Below are positions 1-44,504 of a stretch of DNA of 44,504 nucleotides, in pieces. The DNA comes from a virus (lineage: Duplodnaviria; Heunggongvirae; Uroviricota; Caudoviricetes): IMG/VR virus record IMGVR_UViG_2537561991_000021; one strand, given 5' to 3'. Made by a program: the position numbers and the translations under genes. The stretch's first letter is position 1. Every line of letters begins with the position of its first letter. Below the pieces are notes generated by a model. That model made no database searches. It was not told where the DNA came from and saw only the letters and a list, made by a program, of their open reading frames with translations.

Positions 1-1020
1 GACTTCCGTTATTCTGCCGGATTCGTATAACGCCCGGTAACCACCGTAAGCATCGGCCTGAAGCACACCGCTGTAACCGGCCAGGTGTATTTTTGGTGGA
101 TGGATACCTTTCCGGTCCGGACTGTACGCGAACCAGACCGCCGGGGGCATCTGTGAACCGGCGTTACGGTCATCACGGACGTAGACCCACAGCCGGGCTG
201 TCCGGGTTTTACCGCTGCCCGGCTCCTGGACCGGGACGGGGATATCATCAGCATGGACTTTACCGGGCATCAGCACATACTGGCGCAGGACGTCATACTG
301 CGGCTCCAGTAGTTCAGCAACGGCACCAGTCCAGCGCCCCAGTGTGGCACGGCTCAGCTCCACACCCTGACGGCGGTATATCTCTGACTGGCGGTATAAC
401 GGCAGATGGTCTGCATATTTTCCGGTGACGACATGGGCCAGGAGCCCCGCTCCGGCATAACTGCGTGCAATGGGTTTTGAAGGCACCGGTGCCTGCACGA
501 TATGGTCGCACCGGCAACAGGCCAGTTTCGGACGTTGTGTTTCGATAACCTTAAAGGCGCTGCTGATAAGCTCCAGTTGCTCTGACACATCACATCCCAG
601 AGAACTGAGTTCACCACCACAGGCAGGACAGCATTCCTCTTCCGGCCGGATAACCCGGGTTTCACGGGGAAGTGAGGCCGGTAACGGTTTACGGGCTGAA
701 GACTGGCGCAGGGCGGATGGCAGTACCGGGTCATATTGCTCACCCAGCGTTTCCGCCATTTCTTCCTGAAGTGCGCTGATTCGCTCCTGTGCTTCCTGTA
801 TCTGCCGTTCGGTTTTTGCACGAAGTTTTTCTGAGCTTTTACCGAACTGCATACGTTGCAGTTTCGCAACCAGCGCCTTCAGCCGGTTGATTTCGGAAGC
901 ATAAGCCGCCACCCGCTGTGAGAGCAGGCGGTTGTATTCAGCCATCTGGCGTATGGTGTCCTGTTGCGTCTGCAACAGTGCCCGCAGGCGGGCGTTCTCA
1001 TGAGCAAGTGAGGTGTCCAT
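1..1020 (-). CDS. IS66-family transposase TnpC, N-terminal part (truncated by window edge)
   Basis: Reverse complement of 961..1020 encodes [20 protein letters not shown], matching the start of the 523-aa transposase at 34039..35610. Not in the ORF track because it runs off the window. Confidence 0.8.
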   Translation of the reverse strand, partial: MDTSLAHENARLRALLQTQQDTIRQMAEYNRLLSQRVAAYASEINRLKALVAKLQRMQFGKSSEKLRAKTERQIQEAQERISALQEEMAETLGEQYDPVLPSALRQSSARKPLPASLPRETRVIRPEEECCPACGGELSSLGCDVSEQLELISSAFKVIETQRPKLACCRCDHIVQAPVPSKPIARSYAGAGLLAHVVTGKYADHLPLYRQSEIYRRQGVELSRATLGRWTGAVAELLEPQYDVLRQYVLMPGKVHADDIPVPVQEPGSGKTRTARLWVYVRDDRNAGSQMPPAVWFAYSPDRKGIHPPKIHLAGYSGVLQADAYGGYRALYESGRITEV

Positions 1021-1039
1021 ATCCTCACTTTACAACGGG

Positions 1040-1387
1040 TTATATGCGGATTCCAGCGCGTTCCGTTCGTTTCGGGTGCTTCCAGTTGATACCTTCAAGA
1101 AGCATGGATAACTGAGCCGGAGTAAGGTGCACCTTGCCGTCACGGGTGACTGGCCAGACGAAGCGGCCCCGCTCCAGGCGTTTGGTGAAGAGGCACAGTC
1201 CGTCACTGTCAGCCCACAACACTTTTATCTGGTCACCCCGGCGTCCGCGGAAGATGAACAGGTGTCCGGAGAACGGGTCATCCTTCAGGACGTTCTGAAC
1301 TTTTGATGCCAGGCCGTTAAAACCATTTCGCATATCGGTGATACCGGCAACCAGCCAGATACGCGAACCGGCAGGGAGAGATATCAT
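1040..1387 (-). CDS. IS66 Orf2-like accessory protein (TnpB)
   Basis: 115 aa, identical to the ORF at 33672..34019; sits between orfA and tnpC as in IS66-family elements. Confidence 0.85.
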   Translation of the reverse strand: MISLPAGSRIWLVAGITDMRNGFNGLASKVQNVLKDDPFSGHLFIFRGRRGDQIKVLWADSDGLCLFTKRLERGRFVWPVTRDGKVHLTPAQLSMLLEGINWKHPKRTERAGIRI

Positions 1388-2064
1388 CAGTGGCTGCTCC
1401 CTTTCATTTCGCGGATAAGTGTCTGTAATAACGCCGGCGTCAGTTTACCTTTAAGCCTGAGAGTTCCGGCCGGCAGAATCAGCTCACAACACAGACTGTC
1501 GGACGGTGTATTTATCTGCTCTGGTTCCTGTGCGGGGGCCGGGATTTTATTATCCGGCTCCGGCGTTAACGTCACGGGAAGCAGTACCGGCATATTTTTT
1601 CCGGAAGGCAGCAGGCCACCTTTCCGGTATTGATGGCGCCAGTTGAAGAGCAGGTTATCGTTGATTCCGTTTTCCCGGGCGATCTGCGCCACACAGGCTC
1701 CGGGCTGCAGTGACTGCTCCACTAAGGCGATTTTAAACTCATAAGGGAAGTTGGGCCGCCGGGGACGTTTTTTTATCACGGGGGCTTCGGATATAACGGT
1801 GTTTTCAGGACGTACGACTGGTACCGTGGAAAATTGTCCGTAAAGGCAGGCATCAAGTTCCTGCTCCGACATGCCTGCGGGCAAAGGCCACGAAAGGCCA
1901 GCTCTCCGAAAGCGCACGAACATATTACAAACTGTTGATTTTGGTACACCCAGGCGACGCCCGGCCACAACCCGGGGTAAATGTTCTTCAAAGTGAAGAC
2001 GTAAAGCTTCAGTGATCCAGGTCCGGTGTTTCATACGATAGTGTCCATTAAAAATGATGGACAT
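1387..2064 (-). CDS. IS66-family orfA-like protein with N-terminal HTH
   Basis: 225 aa, about 97% identical to 32995..33672. C-terminal part resembles the short IS66 orfA at 32175..32576 (GINxNLLFxWR). Confidence 0.8.
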   Translation of the reverse strand: MSIIFNGHYRMKHRTWITEALRLHFEEHLPRVVAGRRLGVPKSTVCNMFVRFRRAGLSWPLPAGMSEQELDACLYGQFSTVPVVRPENTVISEAPVIKKRPRRPNFPYEFKIALVEQSLQPGACVAQIARENGINDNLLFNWRHQYRKGGLLPSGKNMPVLLPVTLTPEPDNKIPAPAQEPEQINTPSDSLCCELILPAGTLRLKGKLTPALLQTLIREMKGSSH

Positions 2065-2117
2065 TATTTTTGTAGAGCCGGAGGAAACAGACCAGACGGT
2101 TTAAATGAGCCGGTTAC

Positions 2118-2293
2118 GCTTTATATGAGCCAGGAGCATCTAAACAGGAACATGCCGGGATACCGACACCCACAGCAAGATATTCAGTTGATGTGGAAAT
2201 ATATTCCCGTGTCTCACCATCATAATTGTAAACGGTAATGTCTCCCGCCTTTGTGGTGATGAGTTCGCTATTTAATACAGCTTTATTCATCAT
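2118..2293 (-). pseudogene. tail fiber assembly protein (Tfa), N-terminal fragment truncated by IS insertion
   Basis: Start ATG overlaps the tail-fiber stop (ATGA). Encodes [59 protein letters not shown], typical of a Tfa N-terminus, then runs into the IS end. Confidence 0.6.
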
Positions 2294-3135
2294 GCGGCCC
2301 TTACGATATAATTAAAAGCGATGTTACGAGGACGAGTTTCTGTACCTACATTTTCACTAATTTCACCATAACGTTTAACACTACGAGAGCTAATAGCTCG
2401 TAGTGAGGAAGGCACATTAAGACCGGGTTCGTCCGTTTTAACTATTCCCCCGTCACCGTATGTAGCCAGTATTCCTGGGTTTACTCCTTCCCGTGCACTT
2501 CCTGCGGCGAGTCCGTCCCCTGTCCATAATTCCATATAGTGTGCATGGTCCAAAATTGTGTGTGGCTGCCAATTAAGCAAAGCGCGACCAGTATCAATCC
2601 CGCGACCGTCATCCCAGCCACGAATAAATTCACCGCGTAAATCAGGCAATTTATTGGTCGGGTAAGCCTTTGCCAGTTCCGGGTATTCTTCAGCAGAAAA
2701 AGCCGCACCGTTGCATTTCAGCCAGCCTGTTGGCGGTGTGACTGAAGGCCACGGAACAGGCACACCAACAGGTAATGCAGAACCTTCTCCCAAACCAAGG
2801 TTTTCGAGAGCCGTTTGCACAGTGCCATCCGATTTGATATCGCCAAACGGATTCTTGCGGCTCAGGTATTCAACAGCAAACCCCGATCCCAGCAATTCAA
2901 CAAAACCGGGCAGATCACCATTATCAAGCACATCCCGTTGCGTTTTGTCACTTACAAACTGGGCCAGAGCTGCAGCAATAAAGCTGGCCTGTCGAATGGC
3001 TTTGTTCACCTGCGCACTGGATGCTTTCCCTGCTGTAAATCCGGATAAAAGCGCAGGCAACGCTTCCCATTCCTCCTGCGACATAACATTGGCATTTCGA
3101 TCAGTTGCAAACGCTTTAAAGTCATTTTTCGCCAT
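2290..3135 (-). CDS. tail fiber protein
   Basis: Last structural gene before Tfa. Start assigned to the ATG overlapping the upstream stop (TGATG); the ORF track extends it to 3153. Confidence 0.7.
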
Positions 3136-3815
3136 CAGAGTAATACTCCCCATGCTCCTACATCAAAACCACTGATGAATTCGTTATCCATATCAAAACC
3201 AAAAAATTTTGAGCCTTCCGATGGGGTTTCCACCGAAGGAGTTTCAATGCCCCCCGCCCATACCCCGGCGGCTTTTACTGTGAGATACCCCTGTTTAATT
3301 GCCGCAATTAACTCACGCGATACATCTGAAATATCAGTATCAGGAAAGACCCAGACCGATATCGTCATGTCCTGGTTATCGACTATCTGCATTCGCAGCC
3401 CGGATCCTGCTGTTGCCGCGTCAAGAATTGCCGGAAGCGAATCATTCCGTCCGTCCCAGTTATTAATCGCAATCTTCGCTTTAAGGATGACACGATAAGT
3501 TTCATCGCTGAGGTACATGTATCCGGAATCAGGATCGTATGGTCCCTGCCATACACCCTGATCATATCCAAGCCCGTCGGTATCCCAGCTGAAATAAACA
3601 CCTGAGATAGGCTGGCTGACAACACGGCTACGTCCGATCCACAATCCCAGAATGTCAAGTTGCACACCAACCGCAGAGTCAATATCAAATGCAGTAATCA
3701 GCCCTCTGGTGGCCGCCGCAACATCAATAAGCGGCCGGGTCATCAGATCAACATGTGCAAGAAATTTAGGTTTGGTGGCGTGGTAGTTCGTGATTAGTTC
3801 GGTGTATTTGCTCAT
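3135..3815 (-). CDS. baseplate / tail-fiber-proximal protein (P2 gpI / Mu gp48-like)
   Basis: 226 aa, between the J-like baseplate gene and the tail fiber; ATGA overlap with the upstream stop. Confidence 0.6.
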
Positions 3816-5011
3816 GACTCCACCGTTATAACGATATTTTCCGGGGTACAGGACGCAGATTCGTTGTATCTGATATCAATGTTTGATGACGACAAAGCCC
3901 CCGGAGATTTCCCAATCGTCAGTTCCTGAATATCGTAATAGCGTGCATTCCCGCCACTCACCACGCCAAGATTCGCCGGTGAGTAAATGCGACTTAAAAG
4001 GACCGAATCACCAATCATCAGACTATTGATATAGTCGGAAATAGCCTGCTGGATCTGCTGCCCTATCTGTGAGGTATAACCCGTAAAAACTTTTAATTTA
4101 ATCCGGGCATAAACAGGCACATCACTGGAACGCGAGAATTTGATTACATGGGGATTGCCGTATTTATCCGGAACCGTAACGGATGTTGTACCGTGAGTGG
4201 CTGTCCCCTGGCCTTTATTCCCTCTGATAGCCTGAGCAATATCCATCACATCACCGCCATCCACAATTACAGCAACAGAGTGTGGCGGTAACCCGTTACC
4301 GTCCTCCGAACCAGTATCGTTTTCATAGAGTTTGTGGCGGGTTACACCGGTAACATTAGAAACAGCACCATCCAGTGCTTCAAATGGGGTTATTGATGGC
4401 AACGCAACACTTTGCGACTGGCGGATACGTAACTCCGCATCAGTTTCTGCCGGAGAGCCAACAGTAGCCGCAGCAGGATTAGTTACCGAAACCCAGCCAC
4501 GGGTTGGCGTATTAATTTCAGTGATAGTTCCAGCCAGCGCCGCCACTGCACCACTGACGGAACATGTTGCGGTCGCCATCACTGTACCATCCACGCCGAC
4601 CACCACTGAAGCAGGCAAACGCCATATCACACTATTACTGTCTTTCACGCTGCCATTAATGATGGTTGTTCCGGCAGTTCCTGTAAGAAGCAAATCAACC
4701 GTAGAATTCGTCGCGCCTTTACGTGAAATACCATTTATTTTCACGTTACTGGTCAGTGCGGCCCCATAGCCGGTTGCCGGTGAAAAACAGTTGTAGACAG
4801 TTATCGCAGTATTATTGGCATCATGAATCGCCAGCGCCATCAGAGCCACCATCTGGCCGTCTTTACTATCCGGTTCGAGGTAGGCATCACTGCCATAAAT
4901 CTGCTGAAAATAGCTAATCAGGGTGCTGAGTATCGTCTGATAATCAGGCGCACTGATCCCCTCCGCGGTTACCTTTGCAGATAAACCGAGAGAATCAAGG
5001 TTCAGAGCCAT
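3812..5011 (-). CDS. baseplate J-like protein (P2 gpJ / Mu gp47-like)
   Basis: 399 aa; size and position in a baseplate cluster; translationally coupled to neighbours. Confidence 0.7.
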   Translation of the reverse strand: MALNLDSLGLSAKVTAEGISAPDYQTILSTLISYFQQIYGSDAYLEPDSKDGQMVALMALAIHDANNTAITVYNCFSPATGYGAALTSNVKINGISRKGATNSTVDLLLTGTAGTTIINGSVKDSNSVIWRLPASVVVGVDGTVMATATCSVSGAVAALAGTITEINTPTRGWVSVTNPAAATVGSPAETDAELRIRQSQSVALPSITPFEALDGAVSNVTGVTRHKLYENDTGSEDGNGLPPHSVAVIVDGGDVMDIAQAIRGNKGQGTATHGTTSVTVPDKYGNPHVIKFSRSSDVPVYARIKLKVFTGYTSQIGQQIQQAISDYINSLMIGDSVLLSRIYSPANLGVVSGGNARYYDIQELTIGKSPGALSSSNIDIRYNESASCTPENIVITVES

Positions 5012-5364
5012 TACGCCTCCGATTTAACAGTCGTTATTCCATAGAGAGTGTCGATTTCAGCGGAAAACATGACACGTCGGGTCGTGGTATCCACCGTCGT
5101 ATTGAAAGAGAGGATTGATTTAACGCCCCGCGTTTCGAGGATGCGCTTACGGATCGCCAGGTTGTAGGTTTCCGGCTTCTGCTTACCGAGCACAGACTGG
5201 ATCCACGGGGTCCCTTCGGTGGTGTCGAGAAACCATTGCCCATACCACAATTCAAATCGCGTTTTTACCGCCTGCGCCACGGCCTCCGGTGAGTTAATCA
5301 GCCAGGTGTCATCACCGCTGCCAAAGGTGTAATCGCCATCGGCGTCTTCACGTCTGTATCGCAT
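5011..5364 (-). CDS. small baseplate protein (Mu gp46 / gp25-like wedge)
   Basis: 117 aa between the spike-like and J-like genes. Confidence 0.55.
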   Translation of the reverse strand: MRYRREDADGDYTFGSGDDTWLINSPEAVAQAVKTRFELWYGQWFLDTTEGTPWIQSVLGKQKPETYNLAIRKRILETRGVKSILSFNTTVDTTTRRVMFSAEIDTLYGITTVKSEA

Positions 5365-6113
5365 CAGTTTACCCTATCGGTATTGCTTCCACCGCGCTGA
5401 ACACCGCCATGAGTGTGCGTATCATCGATTGGCTTGCCGTTAGCCTTCACGCTCCCCAAAAACTCAACAGCACCAGTGATTTTTGAAGCCACACCAGAAA
5501 CCACAGACCCCACCATGCCCCCCATCCAGGTTAACAGGCCATGAATGGTTACTTTCTCAGAAAAATCAGCCAGAGGGGCAACCACATCAAGACCACCCGG
5601 AGCGACAATTTTAATTTTCCTGGTATCAGGATTAAGCTCAAAATAGGTGCTGCCGTCATCACTACGCAACTGTGTGGCACTGGTATTAATACCGCTAATC
5701 CTCCTTGCCTGCGACTGGGGACCGACAATACAAAACGCATCCGATAAATCATGCATTCTGTCATCGACCGTCTCCTGTATCCCGCCACTCTGCCACCAGA
5801 AATCGATGCAGCGATCGGCAAAAATCACCAGGCATTCATCGCCGGCTTTTACCGGGAAAGTTAACGTGCAGCCGCCGCCGCGCGGAAATACCACCGGCAC
5901 ATCCACCAGCAGCGGGTAATTTTTGGTTACGCGGTTGCCGTCGTTGTCGGTTTCAACCGAACGAATAGCAGGCTGCACAACCGCCGTCACCGCGTCAGGA
6001 TCGAATGACTGAACGATGCCAGGCAAAGCGACGCGGATCTGGTTCTTTGTGGTTTCCCGCTCGGATTTGAATGTTTCGGCAAGGTCGCCGCTACGAGTCT
6101 GGTCTGATATGGC
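5364..6113 (-). CDS. baseplate assembly protein V-like (spike)
   Basis: Resembles the gpV/gp45 N-terminal OB-fold region (VKAGDECLVIFADR). ATG at 6113 with an AGGAG RBS; the ORF track's TTG at 6149 lies inside the upstream terminator. Confidence 0.65.
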   Translation of the reverse strand, partial: AISDQTRSGDLAETFKSERETTKNQIRVALPGIVQSFDPDAVTAVVQPAIRSVETDNDGNRVTKNYPLLVDVPVVFPRGGGCTLTFPVKAGDECLVIFADRCIDFWWQSGGIQETVDDRMHDLSDAFCIVGPQSQARRISGINTSATQLRSDDGSTYFELNPDTRKIKIVAPGGLDVVAPLADFSEKVTIHGLLTWMGGMVGSVVSGVASKITGAVEFLGSVKANGKPIDDTHTHGGVQRGGSNTDRVN

Positions 6114-6126
6114 CATTTGATAAACT

Positions 6127-6157
6127 CCTGAAAACAAAAAACCCGCCAAGTGGCGGG
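6127..6157 (-). terminator. rho-independent terminator closing the tail-module cassette
   Basis: Minus-strand hairpin CCCGCC-ACTT-GGCGGG followed by TTTTTTGTTTT. Confidence 0.75.
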
Positions 6158-6178
6158 TCTACAGGAACAACTCTAAGT

Positions 6179-6349
6179 TTATTTTTTCTGTTTAAAATTG
6201 TCCAACTCAGGTTCTTTAACGCTTTCTGTCATGTAATCCAATCCACCAAAAGGTACTTCAAGCATTATACTGCTTTCATAATCAGCCATGGATTGCTCTG
6301 CTTGCGTTGGCTTGCTTTGCTGTGAGTTGTCATTATTTGATGTTGTCAT
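6179..6349 (-). CDS. small hypothetical protein (56 aa), third gene of the cassette
   Basis: ATG-initiated ORF MTTSNNDNSQQSKPTQAEQSMADYESSIMLEVPFGGLDYMTESVKEPELDNFKQKK, below the ORF-track size cutoff; lies between the membrane-protein gene and the terminator. Confidence 0.4.
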   Translation of the reverse strand: MTTSNNDNSQQSKPTQAEQSMADYESSIMLEVPFGGLDYMTESVKEPELDNFKQKK

Positions 6350-6352
6350 CAA

Positions 6353-6907
6353 CTATGCCTTATTTATCAAAAGAAAAGTAACCGATAATATGAAAAAACC
6401 GAAAGATAACGCAATTCCTTCAAAAAGATAACGAGCGTAAACTGCCTTTTCTTTATGAAGACTTTCGATCAATTCAACAGCTTTACCATACTGAAACATA
6501 TGGTATCTAAGCGTTTTAATTTTATCACCGTAAAATAAAAAATCATGCTCTTCTTTTCGCTTATGAATAGGCATTTTTGGTATATCTTTCAGTCCCCAAG
6601 TACGCCATAGGAAAAAAAAGCACATAACAATACAAACAAAGCACAGATATGCACAAAGTATAGATAATGTTAAAAACCAATTACTCTTTAGCCCACTTTT
6701 GAAATCAACAGTCCCAAATACAGCCAGTAGAGCAGAGGTTTCTACAGCTAAAATAGCAAGAAGGTAGTTAACTTTGTCCTCAAGACGACGATATGTTGAT
6801 TTTGCTTCCTCATATCTATCTTTATAATATGACGAAATAAAATCAGCGCCTATAGTCTCAATTGCCTTTTGTTCTTCTGTTGTATCTATTGACGAACGCT
6901 TGCTCAT
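6353..6907 (-). CDS. hypothetical membrane protein, AT-rich accessory gene
   Basis: 184 aa with a charged N-terminal region and hydrophobic helices (LLAILAVETSALLAVFGTV, WFLTLSILCAYLCFVCIVMCFFFLW, GIALSFGFFILSVTFLLI). Much lower GC than flanking tail genes. Confidence 0.7.
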   Translation of the reverse strand: MSKRSSIDTTEEQKAIETIGADFISSYYKDRYEEAKSTYRRLEDKVNYLLAILAVETSALLAVFGTVDFKSGLKSNWFLTLSILCAYLCFVCIVMCFFFLWRTWGLKDIPKMPIHKRKEEHDFLFYGDKIKTLRYHMFQYGKAVELIESLHKEKAVYARYLFEGIALSFGFFILSVTFLLINKA

Positions 6908-6914
6908 TTCTCAA

Positions 6915-7262
6915 TCAACCAACAACTTTCTTACACGGGAAAGAGCCAATAATTTTCGGAGCATCCATGCTGTTCTGCAACAACTGGACGTTCAGGAAAC
7001 GCGTTTTAGTGCCAGGTCGATGGATATACTCGAACCCATAATTGTTGCCATCTTTGGCAGGCATCAGGTCCATTTTGATCTGCATGCCTGTACCGTCTTT
7101 ACCCAACATTTTTACTTTTTGGGACGTTACTGTTTCGCCATTGATTTTAAATAATGAATCAGGGATCGCATCCATACGAAAGTTGCCGCATTGCATCGTT
7201 ATGGTGTTTGCACTTACACCAACAGACACTAATGCCAGCAATGAAAATATCCATCGTTTCAT
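6915..7262 (-). CDS. hypothetical secreted (periplasmic) protein, accessory gene
   Basis: Start at MKRWIFSLLALVSVGVSA, a signal-peptidase-I type signal with no lipobox; two Cys in the mature part. The ATG follows the upstream baseplate gene stop by 2 nt. Confidence 0.65.
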   Translation of the reverse strand: MKRWIFSLLALVSVGVSANTITMQCGNFRMDAIPDSLFKINGETVTSQKVKMLGKDGTGMQIKMDLMPAKDGNNYGFEYIHRPGTKTRFLNVQLLQNSMDAPKIIGSFPCKKVVG

Positions 7263-7264
7263 TT

Positions 7265-8329
7265 CTATAATCCTCTCTGAAAAGCAGTGCTGGATGGCAT
7301 ATCCTGCGCACCGCGCGCTTCGCACATCATATCCATGTACCACGCCTGGCCCCTTGTATCGCCAGTGTACATAATCCCGCGCACAATATAAACGCCATCC
7401 GTTGCGATGCTGGCAGGCTGCGATGTGGTGCCGCTTAGCGTAATATTTCCGTCCGTGTTCTGGTCGGTGATCTGCCCACCAGCCATAGCGATATCGTTGT
7501 TCGACAACGCGGTGCGATATACGGAAGCCTGATCCAGTTGAATGAGCCCATTAACCCGGATGTTCGGATTAATAAGCGCGCGAACGTTTACGCCGTTGCC
7601 GATGGTCTGCTGCGGCATGCCAATAAGCCCGGTAGCGCTGTTGAGCACAATCGCTTCGTGAACATATTCATTATTCGCCACCATCTGGCGCTGACCGTCT
7701 ACGAATTGCCATGTTGCGCCACATTGCCCGGCTACGTTATCCATTAGATGCCGCGTCATGCCAAAGAGCACCCGCCCCCGGGGGAATACAGTAGCAGGCA
7801 TTTCAGGCGTCAGGCCTTCGGTCGCACCTTTGGCTTCGAAGTCTTTCATCAGCGCACGGTTCACATCAGCGACCGTGTAACCGGCAGCCAGCGTCTGTGA
7901 GGTTATACTGGTGGCAAAAGCCAGATCAGTATCTGCTGCCTGAATCAGGACGTAGGAATCAACCGGACTGTCTTTTCCTGTAACCGAGTAGCGAATTTCA
8001 CCGCTGAAAATCAGTCCGTAGTTGCGGCCATCACTCTGGCCCACGTCCGCCGCATCAACCTCCCGCACGATCCCGACGTCGCTTGCCGACACCTCCGGCG
8101 CGATACCGTCGTAACCCGCAATCAGACGCACTTTCGAAAACTCCCGCCCGGTGATTCGGTTCACAGTATCTGCCGAGAGGTTATAAATTTTGATAGTCCC
8201 TACCCGGGACGCGCTGCTGATGTTGAACCAGTCGATCGTAAAGGTCACTTTAAAATCACTTAGCTCAATTCCCTGACCGTTCCCGTCCACAAGCTGCAGC
8301 TCGAAATGTCTCATCCAGTTCTGTGACAT
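7265..8329 (-). CDS. baseplate hub-like / tail protein
   Basis: 354 aa in the tail cluster between the tape measure and the spike; assigned by position only. Confidence 0.55.
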   Translation of the reverse strand: MSQNWMRHFELQLVDGNGQGIELSDFKVTFTIDWFNISSASRVGTIKIYNLSADTVNRITGREFSKVRLIAGYDGIAPEVSASDVGIVREVDAADVGQSDGRNYGLIFSGEIRYSVTGKDSPVDSYVLIQAADTDLAFATSITSQTLAAGYTVADVNRALMKDFEAKGATEGLTPEMPATVFPRGRVLFGMTRHLMDNVAGQCGATWQFVDGQRQMVANNEYVHEAIVLNSATGLIGMPQQTIGNGVNVRALINPNIRVNGLIQLDQASVYRTALSNNDIAMAGGQITDQNTDGNITLSGTTSQPASIATDGVYIVRGIMYTGDTRGQAWYMDMMCEARGAQDMPSSTAFQRGL

Positions 8330-8331
8330 GC

Positions 8332-8634
8332 TTACTCCGTTGATACCAGTAAATGGCTGCGACCGCCCAGGTCAGTTTTTGTGGGGTAATCCTGTGTGTT
8401 GTCATCACAGACCACCACCAGCTTAAAACCAAGCCCCATACAGGCGTACTGCGCCAGCAGGTCAGCACCAGTGACGAGAGGAATACCGGAGATTACCGGC
8501 TCCCCTCTGTCGTTCTGCAGGTCCATAATCCAGTACAGATCGCGCCATATGATGCTAATCCGCCAGGTAACACCACCCAGGACGATGCTGAACTGCTGGT
8601 TGTCCGCTGTCAGCGGAATTTCCTGAATTGCCAT
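8332..8634 (-). CDS. small tail protein
   Basis: 100 aa, translationally coupled inside the tail cluster. Confidence 0.5.
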   Translation of the reverse strand: MAIQEIPLTADNQQFSIVLGGVTWRISIIWRDLYWIMDLQNDRGEPVISGIPLVTGADLLAQYACMGLGFKLVVVCDDNTQDYPTKTDLGGRSHLLVSTE

Positions 8635-9221
8635 TAGCCGCCCCCCAGTAATGACGCCACGTTACCCGTGATGCTTTTCAGCAGTGAAGTATCTGGAGGC
8701 TTGGTGGTTTTGTTGCCGCTGTTCTGTACCGCCGACGTGCTGGCCCCTTCCTTCATGTTGGTTTTATCCGCGACGGAAATCTGCTGTGTCCGGGAGATAA
8801 GGACCTCCCTCAGGGTGAGGACGGCGGACAGGACGTTTTCGGTTGTCTTGTCCGTCGTCACTTCCAGCGCCCGGATCAACATGTTGCTGTACAGTCGTTT
8901 ACCGGTTACCACATCGAAGGGGATACGGCTTTCCTGCAGATCCAGTAGCTCCTGATACGTCTGCTGAGGACTCAGGCCGAGCAGGCTGGTAGCCGTCAGG
9001 TTACTGGCAAAATCCAGCAATGCGCCACCACCGGCGAAACCAACCTCCATCACCACTTCTGACGGTTTTTTATAGGCATGATCAGCGACAGCGGCCCCGA
9101 CCTCTACCGGATGCTCTGTTATTTCAAGCATATCTGTATGCTTCTCTGAAATAACAACACAGGGAACAATCATTCCTATTTTTCTGCTCTGCTGATGAAA
9201 AAGTGTAGAGAGAATATCCAC
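8634..9221 (-). CDS. tail protein following the tape measure
   Basis: 195 aa; probable GTG start overlapping the tape-measure stop. Confidence 0.5.
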   Translation of the reverse strand: MDILSTLFHQQSRKIGMIVPCVVISEKHTDMLEITEHPVEVGAAVADHAYKKPSEVVMEVGFAGGGALLDFASNLTATSLLGLSPQQTYQELLDLQESRIPFDVVTGKRLYSNMLIRALEVTTDKTTENVLSAVLTLREVLISRTQQISVADKTNMKEGASTSAVQNSGNKTTKPPDTSLLKSITGNVASLLGGG

Positions 9222-11209
9222 TAACCCACCCTCACCTGATTACTTCGCATGACCTGAGCATTTGCAGACTGTTGCCGACGTGCAACCTCATTACCGACAG
9301 CGTGCGGATCTCCACCACCGTAAATGTGGTAGGTATTTTGCTGGTTAACCTCTGTCACTTTGCCACTAATTCCCGCCACGGCAGCCTTATTAATCAGCTC
9401 CCGAGAATAGATATTTCTTCCATTCTCATGCTGGATAATGCTGCTCATCAATGCTGACATGGTTTGCGGATCGCTCATATTCAGGGCAGCCCGGGGATCC
9501 ACTCCCAGTCGTTGCGATACAGCCCTGATATACGCAGTTGTGTTGTTATTATCAGACGCAGGTGCCCAGGTAGAGATAATTTTCTCCACACTGTTTATTC
9601 CCCGTCCGGCGTACAGCATTAACTGACGAGCAAGAGCCCGTAATCCATCAAAAGCAGTTTCAAATCTGGCAAATCGCCCGCCCGGGCGTTCAAGAGAAGC
9701 CCCTGCCTGACCAGCAAAATTAAGGTTTCCCGGATTGTTATTCCGTTCTCCTCGTTTCGTAGCCTGTGCATGTTGTTCCGGCTCATCATCACCAAACCAG
9801 CCGCGTACCGTCCGGCCCACACTGCGGGGATCGAATCCCCAGTGCTCTTTAATCCAGTCGGCAGTACTGTTAGCGCTGTCTGTAACCATCGGCATCGCTG
9901 ACGGATTTTCGCTGCCCTGATTAAGTATCTGTTTGCCGATGCTGACGGCATCAGCCCAGCGGCCATCTTTGATAGCGTTGAGCAGGTCGGCGATCATGTT
10001 CAGCATTTTGCTGAATTCGCCCATCTGGTCGATGAAGTTGCTGAAATCCCACTTCAGGGACCATGATTTGGGGTCAATATTGAGCAGTTTCGCCAGCGCT
10101 TTCACCAGGTCGTTAACGGTCGTTTTAAGGTCACGAACCATCTTCAGCGCGGCATCGACCTCCGGTTTCCACTTGCCCCAGTCAATCAGGCTGTCGCCGC
10201 CTTCCTTCCAGGTCTGATAGTCCTCCCACAGGAGGGCAATACCCGCCGCCAGCGCGGTAATGAGGCCAATCGGCGACATCCAGAACGTACTGTTCAGAAT
10301 GCGCAGCGCAATCGTCAGTGCGCCAAACAGCGAGATCAACTCCCGCGTTTGCTTATCCAGCGATTGCCACCAGGTGATAAGGCCTGATGTCCCCTCAATC
10401 AGTCTGAAGAACAGCCGCCCGATAATATCCCCGAGCGCCAGAATGCCTTTTATGGCTTTCGTCAGGGTCTGCTCGATACGAGGGAAGTTGTCCAGGATAT
10501 GGCGGCGCAGGGTGTCCAGCGAACCCGCAAGCCCCCCCGCAAGATTAGAGCCGATTTTGTCACGGGCCATGCCTGCCATCGCGCCAAACTCACGCAGGGA
10601 GGTCATAAATTTGTTGGAGCTTCTGGCCGCCTCGTCAGCATTGAAGCCGATAGCTTTCGCCATTGCGCTGTACTGCCCGGAGAAGCCACCCACACCCCGG
10701 CGCATCGCCATAAGGGTATTTTCGTCAATGCCCAGCATCTGCGCATACTGGTTAGCCCGGTAATACGGCATGCTGCTGAGTTTCTGTCCAACGCCCGTAA
10801 AAATAGCGGCCATGTCACGCATGTTACCGCTGGCATCACGGGTCTGTACGCCCAGGCGATTCAGAAAGCCTTCTGCACCGGGATTGTTACGAATAAACCG
10901 GGATAGGCTTTCCAGAGAAGATCGCGCAGCGTCCACGCTGCCGCCAACCTGCGAAACCGCATAGCCAATAGACTGAATTCCCTGGACTGTCGCGCCGGTG
11001 CGCTGTGACGCCCAGTAAAGATTATCCAGGCCGGAGGCGATCTTAGCCGTGAAGGCCACCACGGACAACGCAGCTCCTTCAACAGCCAGCCCCATTTTGA
11101 TGACATTTGCAGTTGTACCGGCGAGGACAGAACCGAACTTTTTCGCTCCTGCATCATCCACACTGAAGCCAAGCGAGACGAGGAAATCTTTAATAGTTTC
11201 AGCGTTCAT
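9221..11209 (-). CDS. tail tape measure protein
   Basis: About 660 aa, Ala/Gly-rich with predicted helical regions, downstream of the chaperone. ATG at 11209 with a GGAGAGAGG RBS. Confidence 0.85.
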   Translation of the reverse strand: MNAETIKDFLVSLGFSVDDAGAKKFGSVLAGTTANVIKMGLAVEGAALSVVAFTAKIASGLDNLYWASQRTGATVQGIQSIGYAVSQVGGSVDAARSSLESLSRFIRNNPGAEGFLNRLGVQTRDASGNMRDMAAIFTGVGQKLSSMPYYRANQYAQMLGIDENTLMAMRRGVGGFSGQYSAMAKAIGFNADEAARSSNKFMTSLREFGAMAGMARDKIGSNLAGGLAGSLDTLRRHILDNFPRIEQTLTKAIKGILALGDIIGRLFFRLIEGTSGLITWWQSLDKQTRELISLFGALTIALRILNSTFWMSPIGLITALAAGIALLWEDYQTWKEGGDSLIDWGKWKPEVDAALKMVRDLKTTVNDLVKALAKLLNIDPKSWSLKWDFSNFIDQMGEFSKMLNMIADLLNAIKDGRWADAVSIGKQILNQGSENPSAMPMVTDSANSTADWIKEHWGFDPRSVGRTVRGWFGDDEPEQHAQATKRGERNNNPGNLNFAGQAGASLERPGGRFARFETAFDGLRALARQLMLYAGRGINSVEKIISTWAPASDNNNTTAYIRAVSQRLGVDPRAALNMSDPQTMSALMSSIIQHENGRNIYSRELINKAAVAGISGKVTEVNQQNTYHIYGGGDPHAVGNEVARRQQSANAQVMRSNQVRVG

Positions 11210-11386
11210 TATCCTCTCTCCATTTCTCAATGCGTCGCTGGTTATCCGCTTTTACCGCCAGATGGTCATTCAAGAGAGCAATGTCATACAAATCGACAGA
11301 GCCATCTTTAAGTGCTGTATAAGGAATTAACCCGGCGTCAACCGGATTGAGAAGGTAGGACAGCCCGTCCGGCAGGCTGTTAAACG

Positions 11387-11839
11387 TCAGCCCTGTTGCA
11401 GGCTCTGCGTCGTGCTGGTAAGGGGTGTAGGCAAAAAATTTCCCAGCGAATCGGCGACCACCCGCGCCACCAGCTGCAGCATGACCAGCAAGTCAATATC
11501 ATCAAACATCAGTTCGCCCTGGGTAAATACCGGCACCCATCCGTCCATATGACGCCGCGATACCACCGCAAGACAGGGATGAATAATCGCATCGGTGTCA
11601 TCTTCGGTCAGGGAAGACAGTTCCTCAGCGATACGCGGGAGCATGGTTTCAAACACCGGTTTTAACTGTTCGAATTTCACGGTGTCGATTTTGCCGTCAG
11701 CAGGCAAACGGGAGCGAATACTCCCGAAATCTGACATCATTCCTGCCAGCACCGGCAGAAGTTTGCGGGTCACTTTCAGCTGGTCAAAAACGCTGAGTTT
11801 TGCCGTGCGATATTTCACGCCTTTAATTTCGAATTCCAT
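11387..11839 (-). CDS. tail assembly chaperone (zero-frame product)
   Basis: 150 aa between the tube and tape-measure genes; followed by an open -1 frame (see findings). Confidence 0.75.
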   Translation of the reverse strand: MEFEIKGVKYRTAKLSVFDQLKVTRKLLPVLAGMMSDFGSIRSRLPADGKIDTVKFEQLKPVFETMLPRIAEELSSLTEDDTDAIIHPCLAVVSRRHMDGWVPVFTQGELMFDDIDLLVMLQLVARVVADSLGNFLPTPLTSTTQSLQQG

Positions 11840-11842
11840 GCA

Positions 11843-12283
11843 TTAAAACTCCCCGAGAACCTGGTCAATCTTGCCGCAGTCAAACACCCACGGCATCGTA
11901 TTACCGGTTTTAGCGTTGGCGTTATCCGGTTGTTTCTGGAACGCAACACTGCGTGCCGTGATGATGTCGCCGCTGACCTTGTTGCGGATCACGATAACGT
12001 TATTCCCCCATGTGGCAGAAGACTGGCTCTGTGCGTTATACGCCAGCGACAATTTTTTATTTGTCGGTGATGTCTTCAGAAGGTTAACGGTAATCGTCCC
12101 GCTTTTATCTGCATGGAGACTGTGCATCACTTCGCCATCAGCACCGATGGTCATGGTGTTTTTAGGACCGCCCATCGCAACCACAATCCCCTCTTCAGAA
12201 CTTGCCGAACCGTACCCGAGGTCAATCGAACCTGTCGGCCCGGTCAGCGTCGCAGTGACATCCATAAAAGAATAGGTAGACAT
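11843..12283 (-). CDS. tail tube protein
   Basis: 146 aa immediately downstream of the sheath gene. Confidence 0.7.
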   Translation of the reverse strand: MSTYSFMDVTATLTGPTGSIDLGYGSASSEEGIVVAMGGPKNTMTIGADGEVMHSLHADKSGTITVNLLKTSPTNKKLSLAYNAQSQSSATWGNNVIVIRNKVSGDIITARSVAFQKQPDNANAKTGNTMPWVFDCGKIDQVLGEF

Positions 12284-12293
12284 TCACTTCCCC

Positions 12294-13439
12294 TTAGCGA
12301 ACAACGTTAATCTGTACGTCAGCGTAATGAACCGCGCCTGCAAGTTTTATTGCAGCCTGAATCACCGGAGCCTTACGGGCTTCACGTTCTGATTGAGCCT
12401 GTTCATCCAGCGGCTGAGCGTATACGTAATAACCTTTGGGCAGTGTGTCACCTGATGACAACTGACCAAGGTCGCCCCCGTTCCATACGCCCGGAGCAAT
12501 CAGTCCATTCTGAACGGCCTGATCCAGTGATTTTTCAACATTTGATAACAGTCGGGTAATACCGGCTTCAGTCTGGGGAACTTTCGTGGTGCTGGTATAA
12601 AGCAGGTTATAGAGGTTGGTCTGCACATAATTCTGTAACCAGTCCAGGCCGTGGCGTTCATCAAAGAAATCGCCGTTAGCCATCACTCCCTGCTGGAGGA
12701 TAGCCGTATCATTCTGGTAGTACACGAATACATTGCAGTTTTTTGCATCAAGTGCCGATGCCTGGCTGACTGTCAGTGTTTCATACCCGATACCCGGCTC
12801 CTGCTTAAACTTGAGCGTAATCGCGGTATTACTGCCATTGAAATTAACCGTGAATGCCCGGCCAAATGCAGATAACGCAGCGTATTTATTACCCGATGAA
12901 TACTGAATAAAACTGCGTGAATATCCGGCGGTTTTCAGTTTTGATGCCAAATCATCGCTGGATGCAGTCTGCAGGCATTTCTCATCGCTTGTCGTAATCG
13001 CCAGAATACGGCTTACAGAAGAGGATTCGATCGCCGCAGCCACTTTCAGCCAGTCTGCATCCTGAATATCTTCATCGTCTGCAATCCCCAGCCCATACCA
13101 TGAAGTATAATCAAGCATGGCATTCACAGCCTGCTCCAGCGTCTCAGGCGTGGCCTGTTCGCTGTCTCCCTTCGTTTTCACCCAACGACCAACAAAAACC
13201 TCCTGAGGTTTCGGTGATTGAGAGAAAAACACCTGCGCAGCCTTATATTCTGGTGATTCCACGCCAAAATCTTTTCCAATATCTTCCGCGGCAGAATAAC
13301 GGCGAATGCGCTCACTTACCGGAATGATTGTGGACGGGCCGAGAATGAGTAATGCACCAAAATTTCGCCCTGATGCTGCACGCGGCGACATGATCACATC
13401 AACATTAACAACGTTTGATACAGGCAAGCCCTGTGCCAT
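12294..13439 (-). CDS. contractile tail sheath protein
   Basis: 381 aa upstream of the tube/chaperone/tape-measure set. Confidence 0.7.
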
Positions 13440-13442
13440 AGC

Positions 13443-14006
13443 TTAATCTCCGAAAAAGATGACTGGTGCATCCACCAGCGATTTAATACCGTACTCGCGC
13501 ACAACCTTCCGGCGCAGGCGCACCGTCATATCGTAGCGGCGGACCCATTGCTGATTAATAAGTTCAGGGAAGGGAGTCAGACCTGTGTAATCGCCAAGAG
13601 ACAGCCCCAGCGCATTCAGTGCTGCATTGTTCTGCGGCACAGATATACCGTCACGAAACCGGGACGCATACACCATCCCCGCCGGTCCATAAAACGAAGC
13701 CATACACTCAATCGTTTCATGCCGCCAGAGCTGAGAGCCATCATCGGTCTGTCTGGTGAATGCCGGACTGTCATCACCTGACCATCCGATAACCCCAAAC
13801 GCACACCAGTTCGTTTCAACCGGTAGCAGTGGCGGCTGCTCTTTCTGCCAGCGCGGGCGAACCATCCCGGCAGACAGACCGGAAACGTTACGTATCCACT
13901 GGCTTAACAGCCTGTCGAGCGCTTCGTCATAATCCGGATCGCCACTGGTTGGTATTAACCATCCGCGCTCTGTACTGGTGTTATTGCTCAACCGGAGTTC
14001 CCCCAT
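13443..14006 (-). CDS. head-tail joining / tail completion protein (hypothetical)
   Basis: ATG at 14006; position between the head and tail modules. Confidence 0.45.
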   Translation of the reverse strand: MGELRLSNNTSTERGWLIPTSGDPDYDEALDRLLSQWIRNVSGLSAGMVRPRWQKEQPPLLPVETNWCAFGVIGWSGDDSPAFTRQTDDGSQLWRHETIECMASFYGPAGMVYASRFRDGISVPQNNAALNALGLSLGDYTGLTPFPELINQQWVRRYDMTVRLRRKVVREYGIKSLVDAPVIFFGD

Positions 14007-14370
14007 CAAACGGCATCAACTCACAATGCGCCTGAACGAATCCGGCCCCATAAGCTGTATACGGGTCGACGAAGGTCACACGGTAATCACGGCCCTGATA
14101 CGTCACGATATCGGCATCACGGCCAGTCTGTCCCTGCGTCAGTCGCTCAGTCGTCACAATCAGAATTGCACCACTGATTACCTGCCCGGCCTGCATACGA
14201 CGGTTTTCCAGAGAGCGATCAACAGTAACGACTCCGGCAAACTGCTTTTTAACTTCGCTGTCGCTGCCGATTCCGTCCTCATCCACCGTTTGCACACGGC
14301 GTGTTACCCACAAATTGAAGTCGCAAAAATCGGGGTCAAAAAGCACATCTGTTACATCAAGAGTCGGCAT
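13981..14370 (-). CDS. head-tail connector protein (hypothetical)
   Basis: 129 aa, coupled to neighbours in the connector region. Confidence 0.45.
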   Translation of the reverse strand: MPTLDVTDVLFDPDFCDFNLWVTRRVQTVDEDGIGSDSEVKKQFAGVVTVDRSLENRRMQAGQVISGAILIVTTERLTQGQTGRDADIVTYQGRDYRVTFVDPYTAYGAGFVQAHCELMPFDGGTPVEQ

Positions 14371-14911
14371 CTTTATCCCTCACTACATGGGTAATAGCTC
14401 TGCGATATTGCCCGGTGTCAATTAATGGTTTCGCCAGATCGGTTCCGGGAGATTCGCCAGCAACACGCCGGGCAAGTTCCAGTGTTGCCCCCTTGCACCC
14501 CCGACGAGCCCGGGCTTCAACAGTACTGTCAGCAAGCGGCGTAAAGCCGGTAATGGTCATGTAACGCCTGACGCCATTAACGGCCAGCGTTCCGGCACGG
14601 TTGAGTGCACTTTCTGCTCCCGCAGCATTACCATCAAGTGCAGCCTGCGCCGCGGCTTTAAGCTGCGGCACCGTCTGCTCTTCTGCCGATTTAACGCCGG
14701 GGACCAGGTGAGGTCGTGGCGGGATGTTCTGCTCTGGTGAGCCGTATTCGTTGAGGTAACCGATGCCCGCATTACCAAACGGAACATCATCCCGTTCGCT
14801 GTCTTCCGAAGGGATGCCGACCAGCACATCTTTTTTGGTTAACGACCTGAGCGCATCCAGAATGGCCTTAGCGTTATCCACCCTCGTTGTTACACCGCTT
14901 TTGAAACTCAT
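14357..14911 (-). CDS. virion morphogenesis / head completion protein (hypothetical)
   Basis: 184 aa; ATGA overlap with the upstream stop. Confidence 0.45.
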
Positions 14912-15315
14912 AGCTGGCGACCGCCTGCACCGAACATCGTGATCAACTGATAAAATTCAGCGCCATATCGGGTGTTATTCCAGAAACCTGCATCAGGATT
15001 CAGCGTCGCGCTGGTGTCATAGCTGACGCTTACCTTATCCACGGACTTTGAGGACTGAACACCATTGGTTGAACCGCCCGGACCACCAGCCAGCATCGCT
15101 CTGCTGTCAGCCGCCCAGAGCGTCATGTAGTGAGCAACGAACAACCCGGCAAAGTACGGAAACAACTTTTTGCCGGTGACATTTTCGCTCAGCAGTTCAT
15201 CGGCCAGATTCAGACGGAACCCGATTTGGGCGTCGGGATATTTTGCCGGGTCAGCAAACTGCGGGAAGTCGCGGCGAAAATCACTTACCGCTGGCAGACT
15301 TTGATTCTTTGACAT
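14908..15315 (-). CDS. head-tail connector protein (hypothetical)
   Basis: Start tentatively at [10 protein letters not shown]; the ORF track extends upstream with a non-ATG start. Confidence 0.45.
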
Positions 15316-15649
15316 CTTTAGCCCCATTACCGCCAGTCCGGGCGGCAGTAATCTGCGCCTGCAGGCTGTCGTTCTGCTCCTGCAGTTTGAGCAATGCATC
15401 TTTAAGATCGGCAATCAGCTTATCTTTGTCGGCAATCTGCGCTTGCAGGCCGTCGATAATGGGTTGCAGATCATCGGTGTCGCTAATCACGCTTTCGGAA
15501 AGCTCAGAGTGCGCCTGGGTGAACCAGTGCGACGCGACCTCTTCCGGTACGTTATGCCGTCCCCGGCCAAACTCCTGTTTTGACTGATCGCCGAGCGTCA
15601 GCGTAAACGGGGTGTGAACATGGATGGTAACCAGCTTTTCTTTCGCCAT
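15281..15649 (-). CDS. small phage structural-module protein with coiled-coil C-terminus
   Basis: ATG at 15649 ([12 protein letters not shown]) preceded by an AAGGAAA RBS; the longer ORF-track version would read through the hairpin after the capsid gene. Confidence 0.5.
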
Positions 15650-15663
15650 TTCAGTTTCCTTCA

Positions 15664-15679
15664 GGCCCCTTTCGGGGCC
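15664..15679 (-). promoter_or_regulatory. stable stem-loop immediately after the major capsid gene
   Basis: Perfect GGCCCC-GAAA-GGGGCC hairpin 10 nt after the capsid stop, with no U-tract. Confidence 0.5.
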
Positions 15680-15689
15680 ATTCTGGTTA

Positions 15690-31742: not shown

Positions 31743-32102
31743 ATGAAACTGAAGCTGAACAATGTTCGTCTGGCCTTCCCGTCTCTGTTTGAAGCTAAAA
31801 CTGTAAACGGCGAAGGCGATCCGCGTTTCTCCGCAGTATTTTTAATGTCTCCCAAACACCCACAACTGGAAGAAATCCGTAAAGCTATGAAGCAGGTAGC
31901 GAAGGAAAAATGGGGAGAGAAGTGGGAGCCCATTTATAACCAGCTGGAGAAAAAACTCAATCTGTGCCTGCATGATGGTGATGAAAAAGCAGAGTATGAA
32001 GGCTTCCCCGGTAATTTCTTCCTGAATGCTGCTAACAAAGCGCGCCCAGCTGTTCTTGATCGCGATCGTTCGCCACTTATTCAGGCTGACGGACGTCCCT
32101 AT
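31743..32102 (+). pseudogene. putative ssDNA-binding protein, 5' part (split by IS insertion)
   Basis: Reading frame runs into the IS end at 32103 (GTAAGCG); continues in frame at 35642. Confidence 0.6.
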
Positions 32103-32174
32103 GGTAAGCGTACAGCCTGAACCGTCTGGTCAGAATCTGACGAATTAGACAAAGTGGTGTCCACCAAATAAGTA

Positions 32175-32576
32175 GTGGGAACCAAAGTATCAGATATGCA
32201 GAAAAATGTGACTCCCGGCAGGCGAAAAGGCTGCCCTAATTATCCTCCCGAATTTAAACAGCAGCTCGTTGCTGCCTCCTGTGAACCCGGGATATCCATC
32301 TCAAAACTTGCTCTTGAAAATGGCATTAACGCCAATCTGTTGTTCAAATGGCGACAACAATGGCGCGAGGGAAAGCTGCTATTACCTTCTTCAGAGAGCC
32401 CCCAGCTACTTCCTGTGACTCTCGATGCAGCTGCCGAACAGCCAGAATCGCTCGCAGAGGACCCGGAAACCCTCAGTATCAGCTGTGAGGTAACGTTCCG
32501 GCACGGGACGCTCCGCTTCAATGGCAATGTCAGCGAAAAGCTCCTGACTCTGCTGATACAGGAACTGAAGCGATGA
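32175..32576 (+). CDS. IS66-family orfA (short form)
   Basis: 133 aa; GINANLLFKWRQQWREGKLL region shared with the longer orfA-like proteins. Confidence 0.75.
   Translation: MGTKVSDMQKNVTPGRRKGCPNYPPEFKQQLVAASCEPGISISKLALENGINANLLFKWRQQWREGKLLLPSSESPQLLPVTLDAAAEQPESLAEDPETLSISCEVTFRHGTLRFNGNVSEKLLTLLIQELKR

Positions 32577-44234: not shown

Positions 44235-44504
<270 letters not shown>

Follow-up and report, generated by a model that had tools for sequence, protein, structure and literature searches.

The window analysed here, the whole stretch of 44,504 nt, corresponds to positions 3..44506 of draft contig ADUO01000178.1 (assembly GCA_000188775.2). Its left end carries an IS element, a broken tail-fibre assembly (Tfa) gene and a tail-fibre gene, with the following features:

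1..2117, minus strand: ISCro1, an IS66-family element, of whose 2,699 bp the 2,117 next to the IRL are present, identified by Pfam matches and by 98.8% identity to 32942..35640
1..1020, minus strand: left tnpC, first 340 codons (PF13007, PF13005, PF03050)
1040..1387, minus strand: left tnpB (PF05717, E 5e-40)
1387..2064, minus strand: left tnpA (PF01527)
2114..2293, minus strand: truncated Tfa gene, the counterpart of Mu U and e14 TfaE, a 59-aa ORF of 58 native codons with an IS-encoded stop
2118..2125: 8-bp target-site duplication GCTTTATA from the ISCro1 insertion, visible copy (partner copy beyond the window edge)
2290..3153, minus strand: tail-fibre gene in its present switch state (PF07484)
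2785..2810, plus strand: Pin/Gin-type crossover site TTCTCCCAAACCAAGGTTTTCGAGAG, 26 bp, one segment boundary

The left IS ends with the contig and splits a Tfa gene

The Pfam matches of tnpA, tnpB and tnpC bore out the original prediction that positions 1..2117 are an IS66-family copy on the minus strand, and copies identical to it are annotated in RefSeq as ISCro1. Both IS copies of the window have tnpA (HTH), tnpB (IS66 Orf2) and tnpC (DDE_Tnp_IS66, zinc finger, leucine zipper) in this order. As in other IS66-family members, terminal inverted repeats (IRL GTAACCGGCTCATTTAAACCGT, IRR GTAAGCGACTCGTCAGAACCGT) and an 8-bp target duplication go with ISCro1. The outer IRL end of the left copy is position 2117. 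A single side of its duplication is visible in the window, and both sides were read in sister loci: in seven of them that span the element, TATAAAGC (in IS sense) was found on both sides of the 2,699-bp IS. The source contig terminates 2 nt to the left of window position 1, and the left IS is cut at position 1 because the draft contig ends there; its apparent truncation is a contig end of the draft assembly. Indeed, at least seven sister assemblies have the same left insertion, with the IS complete and the rest of Tfa directly beyond it.

As predicted, the IS end at 2117 cuts the Tfa reading frame after 58 codons. The ORF at 2114..2293 consists of 58 Tfa codons plus 2 nt, next to which come an IS-encoded base and stop. 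The 59-aa product gave no Pfam match in our own profile scan; its precomputed match is to the N-domain PF28596 (Caudo_TAP_N). The PF02413 domain appears only when Tfa is rejoined across the IS with the remainder from sister genomes. The rejoined protein has 201 aa, with PF02413 at residues 79-200 (E 2.5e-33); thousands of intact 200-aa proteins match it from end to end at 90-94% identity. The N- and C-domains that define the family (PF02413, Mu U, P2 G) are not in one frame in the window, and the gene is a disrupted member of the Tfa family. In sister genomes, the annotation places a 127-aa C-terminal ORF with a full PF02413 domain downstream of the IS; read-out from the IS might conceivably allow this ORF to be expressed. 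The function of this gene product (Tfa-A) is presumably lost.

The broken Tfa gene lies in a putative invertible fibre cassette

The source contig ends inside the IS, and the context of the Tfa gene was read in sister genomes sharing the insertion allele. There, more tail-fibre sequence is present beyond the left IS, as had been expected, in the order Tfa C-part, intact Tfa of 139 aa (PF02413), Gp53-like tip, resolvase-family invertase and yfhH. The intact 139-aa gene is, in these sister genomes, the full-length Tfa elsewhere in the prophage that the original prediction itself had named as refuting it.

The fibre gene has a constant N-terminal part ending ...ENLGLGE and a variable C-terminal tip (Collar domain) at ~2290..2784. 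A scan of both strands with the crossover pattern revealed 1 site, with 0 expected in 100 shuffles. This site, at 2785..2810, includes the published e14 P-segment repeat CCTTCTCCCAAACCAA, and the 16-nt core is identical. The partner is located ~1.8 kb left of the window edge and is found in sister locus L001 as an inverted repeat at 10215..10234; the segment is thus delimited by two ~26-bp inverted crossover sites with an AAACC-NN-GGTTT core. Moreover, the two fibre isoforms have 117 aa in common and diverge exactly at the crossover site. Judged by these sequence features, the disrupted Tfa gene sits in an invertible host-range segment of the e14 P/Mu G type. The original prediction missed this cassette, one crossover site of which is inside the window.

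Both orientations of the segment occur in nature. Orientation A, as in the window, was found in six loci (L001, L006, L008, L009, L012, L013) and the flipped orientation B in five (L005, L007, L010, L011, L014), all with the same IS. Furthermore, two NCTC PacBio assemblies each contain one main and one minor contig in opposite states. The assembled contigs of both states argue that the cassette still flips, although minor PacBio contigs indicate a mixed population only indirectly. In sister genomes, the invertase gene (PF00239, PF02796) adjoins the segment and is outside the window; in all copies that were examined, a 1-nt deletion interrupts its reading frame. Because of this deletion, another chromosomal invertase paralogue most likely flips the segment in trans; FDAARGOS_1059 has 6 invertase-like places. 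In principle, the frameshift could also be bypassed rather than complemented. The e14 segment can be inverted by each of PinE, PinQ and PinR, and PinE also flips the G segment of Mu and the H segment of Salmonella (PMC12529663).

A hybrid IS unit splits the ssDNA-binding gene

The right-hand part of the window contains the second ISCro1 copy and the right end of the prophage:

31743..35836, plus strand: DUF2815/Enc34-type ssDNA-binding gene, split by the hybrid (PF10991, E 1.5e-22)
32096..32103: 8-bp duplication TCCCTATG, left copy (right copy at 35641..35648)
32104..32941, plus strand: 5' 838 bp of an ISEc8-type IS66 element (IRL, tnpA, tnpB; PF01527, PF05717), which abuts the IRL of ISCro1
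32942..35640, plus strand: complete ISCro1, 2,699 bp, with tnpA, tnpB and tnpC intact
42632..44035, minus strand: integrase gene
44274..44291: attachment core AATTGTGATATGTGTGAA, 18 bp, in yfhL, right prophage end

An SSB-like gene had been described as split, and this was found to be the case for the PF10991 gene, with its N part at 31743..32103 and its C part at 35649..35836. The right ISCro1 did not insert alone. The duplication TCCCTATG flanks a 3,537-bp hybrid made up of 838 bp of ISEc8 plus ISCro1, and when the uninterrupted gene of FDAARGOS_1059 is compared with the window, the alignment blocks overlap by 8 nt at the hybrid. The proteins of the ISEc8-type part, WP_001171554 and WP_000612591, are also found in elements annotated as ISEc8 family. 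The right-hand insertion is missing from the 99.96-99.99%-identical prophage of FDAARGOS_1059, which has an intact 549-bp ssDNA-binding gene. Other assemblies with the split gene are short-read drafts only, broken at the IS. As judged by coverage, ETEC H10407 and strain 08_3449 seemed to have a similar element, but they were rejected as carriers of the same hybrid: there, ISCro1 lies beside a complete ISEc8 or is inserted 275 bp further into ISEc8.

Both IS copies lie within the prophage

The two IS copies had been taken to bracket the prophage. A second copy of the attachment core is located next to yfhH at 8317..8334 of L001, a 99.96%-identical genome, ~3.7 kb left of window position 1. The cores are outside both IS copies, and therefore both are internal to a prophage of ~48 kb, which rules out bracketing.

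The annotation of FDAARGOS_1059 has frameshifts in two structural genes. Both ORFs are intact in the window (406 aa at 17153..18373 and 354 aa at 7265..8329), and the frameshifts were therefore not taken as decay of the source prophage.

Other explanations for the arrangement

Three other explanations were weighed, two of which concern the left contig end. The junction of IS and Tfa is within 2.1 kb of the end of a draft contig and might come from mis-assembly of a chimeric end. This is effectively refuted, since the identical junction and 59-aa product are found in at least 24 contigs of independent assemblies, among them one closed chromosome and several PacBio assemblies. It is also conceivable that the left IS of the source strain really is a remnant, or has lost its outer flank by an IS-mediated adjacent deletion, with the rest of Tfa, the alternative half of the cassette and the invertase gone and the switch locked and dead. 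The source assembly does stop inside this IS, and the visible left tnpC has a 3-nt difference at 88..95 that is unique to the left copy. However, this change is in frame, a contig that ends in a multi-copy IS is usual behaviour of draft assemblers, and over the visible 2,117 nt and the 14 kb next to them the window is 99.96% identical to FDAARGOS_1059, which has a complete IS between the two copies of its duplication. Such a loss in the source strain is very improbable, and we read the left IS as a complete element at a contig end.

The original prediction also held that recombination between the inverted IS copies would invert the late genes and the immunity region and that the prophage is likely defective or at least impaired in adsorption. 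The geometry was described correctly: the copies are inverted, with their tnpA-proximal (IRL) ends facing inward over 30,824 nt. Their identity, given as about 97%, was measured to be 98.8% over 2,117 nt (23 substitutions and 3 indel columns), and the longest perfect run is 427 nt. Judged by these values, the 2.7-kb repeats would be a plausible substrate for RecA. Moreover, in a related enterobacterium, homologous recombination between IS copies has been documented to cause inversions (PMC3072379), and the Tfa and ssDNA-binding genes are indeed both split. A 31-kb inversion between the IS copies is thus geometrically possible, but it was not observed. The source contig and FDAARGOS_1059 are collinear. 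This relative carries the left IS alone; without the right-hand IS it cannot have inverted, and the arrangement seen is therefore the ancestral one. The two insertions together were present in 0 of 5,426 complete E. coli genomes, and because no complete genome holds both, no isomer could be found among them; short junction patterns are blind to inversion isomers, in which each IS end keeps its own flank. An exchange of target duplications between the copies, the footprint of a past inversion, was considered and rejected: the left IRL flank TATAAAGC (in IS sense) is unlike the flanks of the right element, GGTTGTCA and TCCCTATG, and matches its own IRR flank in the sister genomes. As to the defect, both IS copies lie inside the prophage, and the cassette of the sister genomes includes an intact alternative fibre tip and Tfa. 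The break in Tfa stands, but any impairment of adsorption would affect at most one of the two switch states. Taken together, an inverting, fibre-less and defective prophage seems improbable, and an IS insertion into the fibre cassette is the reading that we follow below.

DISCUSSION

We consider it very probable that ISCro1 hit the invertible fibre cassette of a ~48-kb prophage in yfhL and that a hybrid element inserted later in the ssDNA-binding gene. This history starts from what was observed: the anatomy of the locus, the duplicated target sites, the two states of the switch and the frameshift of the invertase. One transposition of ISCro1 into the Tfa gene of a temperate, myovirus-like E. 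coli prophage in yfhL would have created the left 8-bp duplication. The cassette would then consist of the constant 5' part of the fibre gene, a crossover site, tip A and Tfa-A with ISCro1, followed by Tfa-B and tip B in inverted orientation, the second crossover site and the invertase gene. In the state of the window, the fibre would have tip A and its cognate chaperone would be broken; after site-specific inversion, the fibre would have tip B and be followed by the intact Tfa-B. The loss of Tfa-A function, inversion in trans and any effect on virions are inferred. The cassette, now 4.6 kb including the IS, is probably still flipped, most likely by a trans-acting invertase paralogue. The second ISCro1 would be a later, lineage-restricted event, in which the hybrid ISEc8'-ISCro1 unit went into the phage ssDNA-binding gene.

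Mainly, these data are a correction: what looked like a fibre-less prophage bracketed by IS copies is an IS in a classic host-range cassette at a contig end. A partial IS at the edge of a sequence should not be taken as a truncation or a boundary, and a gene disruption within an invertible cassette inactivates one switch state only. We are dealing with ordinary prophage decay on a known switch. The type of invertible segment and ISCro1 were already known, and the damage, while real, is conditional and comes as no surprise. What stands out is a Pin-type segment that is enlarged 2.5-fold by an IS and lies beside a frameshifted invertase, yet is found in both orientations. The occurrence of both orientations despite the frameshift agrees with reports that several chromosomal Pin paralogues service one segment.

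A more speculative idea is that the IS turned a switch between two host ranges into an on/off switch of fibre maturation, flipped by invertases elsewhere while its own invertase is dead; we regard this as rather unlikely. In its bolder version, the host would keep the flipping cassette for its own benefit and not for virions, in analogy to the anti-adsorption protein StfE2 of e14, which is reported to be made by PinQ-driven inversion.

Comparison with known systems

The phage resembles the group of Escherichia phage vB_EcoM-606R2, to which it is 97.5% identical over ~80% of the late region, and it is 83% identical to Salmonella phage SEN34. The 606R2 record has the same yfhH-side end, in which invertase, tip and Tfa are followed by an oppositely oriented Tfa and fibre. 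The 606R2 and SEN34 records are without the IS and have an intact Tfa beside the fibre gene, and their tips and Tfa sequences are different.

The left IS copy does not differ from ISCro1/IS679-type IS66 elements: it has in common with them the length of 2,699 bp, repeats starting with GTAA, tnpA, tnpB and tnpC, and the 8-bp duplication. The right copy differs from them in its fusion with 838 bp from the start of an ISEc8-type element and in that the duplication flanks the fusion and not ISCro1 alone.

The closest parallels of the cassette are the P segment of e14 with PinE, the G segment of Mu with Gin and the C segment of P1 with Cin. All of them have a serine invertase gene beside a segment with inverted 26-bp sites, one crossover site inside the fibre gene and two alternative C-terminal ends of the fibre, with a separate Tfa gene behind each of them, and here, too, both orientations are present among sequenced genomes. 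Unlike e14, the phage is a myovirus similar to SEN34 and vB_EcoM-606R2 and resides in yfhL. In contrast to the segments of e14, Mu and P1, the segment described here has one of its two Tfa genes broken by a 2.7-kb IS, and its cis invertase gene is frameshifted.

Insertion of ISCro1 into the Tfa gene

Window positions 1..2117 are occupied by an IS66-family element in minus-strand orientation. Its identical counterparts, present in thousands of E. coli genomes, are annotated by RefSeq as ISCro1, a name taken from Citrobacter rodentium. The outer end of the element's left inverted repeat (IRL) lies at position 2117, next to the gene for the tail fiber assembly chaperone, Tfa. The features at this edge are as follows:

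1..1020, minus strand, initial 340 codons of tnpC (PF13007, PF13005, PF03050)
1040..1387, minus strand, tnpB, 115 aa (PF05717, E 5e-40)
1387..2064, minus strand, tnpA, 225 aa (PF01527)
2114..2293, minus strand, truncated Tfa ORF: 58 codons plus 2 bases of Tfa, then an IS-encoded stop
2118..2125, 8-bp target duplication GCTTTATA (window strand), found on both sides of the IS in 7 sister loci

The original prediction had the IS end at 2117 cut Tfa after 58 codons; the ORF, the IS end, and the stop as read agree with this, and its sequence facts are therefore correct. It had also proposed looking for the rest of Tfa past the left edge, and in sister genomes the remainder is indeed present there. 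The truncated gene is common to at least 24 contigs, as judged by exact look-up of its 59-aa product, and the closed chromosome of strain FDAARGOS_1059 matches window positions 3..16001 at 99.96%. Seven loci extend across the whole element; in these, the IS measures 2,699 bp and has an identical 8 bp on either side. When the window's 176 nt of Tfa were joined to the far-side sister sequence, minus one copy of the duplication, we obtained a 201-aa ORF with PF02413 over residues 79-200 (E 2.5e-33); from end to end, it is 90-94% identical to intact Tfa proteins of 200 aa, of which there are thousands. The Tfa lesion is a plain single transposition and not a deletion.

Positions 3..44506 of contig ADUO01000178.1 (GCA_000188775.2) match the window exactly, and the contig terminates 2 bases left of window position 1. 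The cut in the left IS is an assembler halt within a multicopy element, and no biological meaning is to be drawn from the missing 582 bp. The tnpC of the left copy differs by 3 nt, in frame (window 88..95, QN to PKI), from both the right copy and the FDAARGOS_1059 copy; with the contig end less than 100 nt away, an assembly error may be the cause.

The interrupted gene lies in an invertible fiber cassette

Past the Tfa remainder, the sister genomes carry, in order:

an intact 139-aa Tfa (Tfa-B), on the opposite strand
a Gp53-like fiber tip, on the same strand as the 139-aa Tfa
a resolvase-family invertase gene (9599..10152 of sister locus L001; outside the window, ~1.8-2.4 kb left of position 1)
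one hypothetical gene
a duplicated yfhL 5' end, adjoining yfhH

A 20-nt inverted repeat connects the start of this alternative tip with a site within the window's fiber gene:

2785..2810, crossover site TTCTCCCAAACCAAGGTTTTCGAGAG, inside the fiber gene

This site is the sole match to a degenerate hix/gix-type pattern, for which 0 matches were expected (100 shuffles). The repeat of the e14 P segment, printed as CCTTCTCCCAAACCAA (PMC12529663), is contained in it. By the inverted repeat, the pattern match, and the e14 repeat, the region is an invertible host-range cassette of the e14 P/Mu G type, within which ISCro1 lies.

We used marker blasts (constant fiber, tip A, Tfa N-part, IS, Tfa C-part, Tfa-B, tip B, invertase) on 11 loci, tips A and B being the alternative fiber C termini. 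The order was that of the window in 6 loci; in the other 5, the entire segment was reversed, IS included, and the constant part was joined to tip B, followed by intact Tfa-B. The two predicted fibers have 117 residues in common, up to ...ENLGLGE, and diverge thereafter. In each of two NCTC PacBio assemblies, the locus was present twice, once on a chromosome-scale contig and once, in the opposite state, on a small extra contig, which is what a mixed culture yields.

The segment occurs in both orientations despite a deletion in its own invertase gene: the adjoining ORF is broken by loss of 1 nt in a GGG run (ATGGGCCG to ATGGCCG), which leaves the catalytic and DNA-binding domains disconnected. 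Among complete genomes, 14 have this very 554-bp allele, ETEC H10407 and O103:H2 12009 being two of them. On the FDAARGOS_1059 chromosome, we found five further invertase-like places. According to PMC12529663, the e14 segment is inverted by PinE, PinQ, and PinR alike, and PinE also inverts the G segment of Mu and the H segment of Salmonella. Given these five places and the reported cross-activity of the Pin proteins, the cassette is likely inverted in trans, by invertases from elsewhere in the chromosome. A related prophage of strain QA-1986 630 (L002 5444..8229, NZ_CP101920.1), integrated at a different chromosomal site, has a cassette of this type with ISCro1 in its invertase gene; the module has thus been hit by ISCro1 a second time, independently.

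The right-hand insertion and the proposed 31-kb inversion

The right-hand ISCro1 is part of a 3,537-bp insert flanked by an 8-bp duplication:

32096..32103 and 35641..35648, duplication TCCCTATG

In it, a complete ISCro1 directly abuts the initial 838 bp of an ISEc8-type element, which comprise the IRL, tnpA, and tnpB. Removal of the insert restores a 549-bp DUF2815/Enc34-type ssDNA-binding gene, intact in FDAARGOS_1059, which bears out the split SSB-like gene of the original prediction. Since TCCCTATG flanks the whole hybrid, the data suggest that the hybrid moved as a unit, with the ISEc8 IRL and the ISCro1 right repeat (IRR) as transposition ends. The IRLs of ISEc8 and ISCro1 have a common ending (AACCGTCTGG). 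The ISEc8-ISCro1 junction was found in 0 of 5,426 complete E. coli genomes; H10407 and strain 08_3449 were rejected as carriers, their arrangements being different. The split gene was seen in a few draft assemblies only. By these distributions, the right-hand insertion is later than that in Tfa and restricted to one lineage.

A 31-kb inversion between the two IS copies had been proposed, and the geometry for it is present. The copies are inverted (92..2117 with 32942..34967 and 1..96 with 34960..35055; spacing in the repeat finder, 30,824 nt) and of RecA-grade similarity: direct alignment gave 98.8% identity instead of the predicted 97% or so (23 substitutions and 3 indel columns in 2,117 nt), with a longest perfect run of 427 nt. 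Inversions between repeated IS copies are on record in Citrobacter rodentium (PMC3072379). No sign of such an inversion was seen here: the window, the 3,537-bp insertion aside, is collinear with the single-IS relative FDAARGOS_1059, and the flanking duplications are unexchanged between the two copies. No long-read genome with both copies was present in the collections searched.

Prophage ends and gene content

The right end of the prophage contains the following features:

42632..44035, integrase gene
44274..44291, 18-bp core AATTGTGATATGTGTGAA, inside yfhL

In a sister genome, the core recurs ~3.7 kb left of window position 1. The predicted bracketing of the prophage by the IS copies thus does not hold, and prophage DNA flanks both copies: ~3.1 kb lie outside the left IS (Tfa remainder, other cassette half, invertase, cargo gene) and 8.6 kb outside the right IS (DNA polymerase A, TIR, VRR-NUC, SNF2-type helicase, integrase). 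The ferredoxin gene yfhL (44230..44490), inside which the prophage is integrated, stays open because the prophage provides a substitute 5' end with a different 16-residue start.

The early region encodes a 253-aa TIR-domain protein (38693..39454, plus strand) with a full-length match to the PADLOC candidate defense family PDC-S35 (E 7e-109), probably a phage-borne defense gene. Two AT-rich ORFs (35889..36518 and 40183..40980, both minus strand; local GC, 0.37-0.40) run opposite to the early operon and look like morons; a PADLOC search with them gave no match. In sister loci L005, L006, and L013, the baseplate J gene (equivalent to window 3812..5011) is interrupted by an extra IS3-family element, an additional, independent decay of the same prophage.

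The observation behind the original prediction is real, and its interpretation needs recentering: what matters biologically is an invertible tail fiber cassette of a known kind, one of whose two chaperone genes has been hit by an IS. Particles lacking fibers would be expected for at most one switch state; the flipped state has intact Tfa-B. In this lineage, the ssDNA-binding gene of the prophage is split and its cis invertase is dead, in addition to the Tfa hit, and the prophage may well be defective. The case is one of ordinary prophage decay on top of a well-known switch system.
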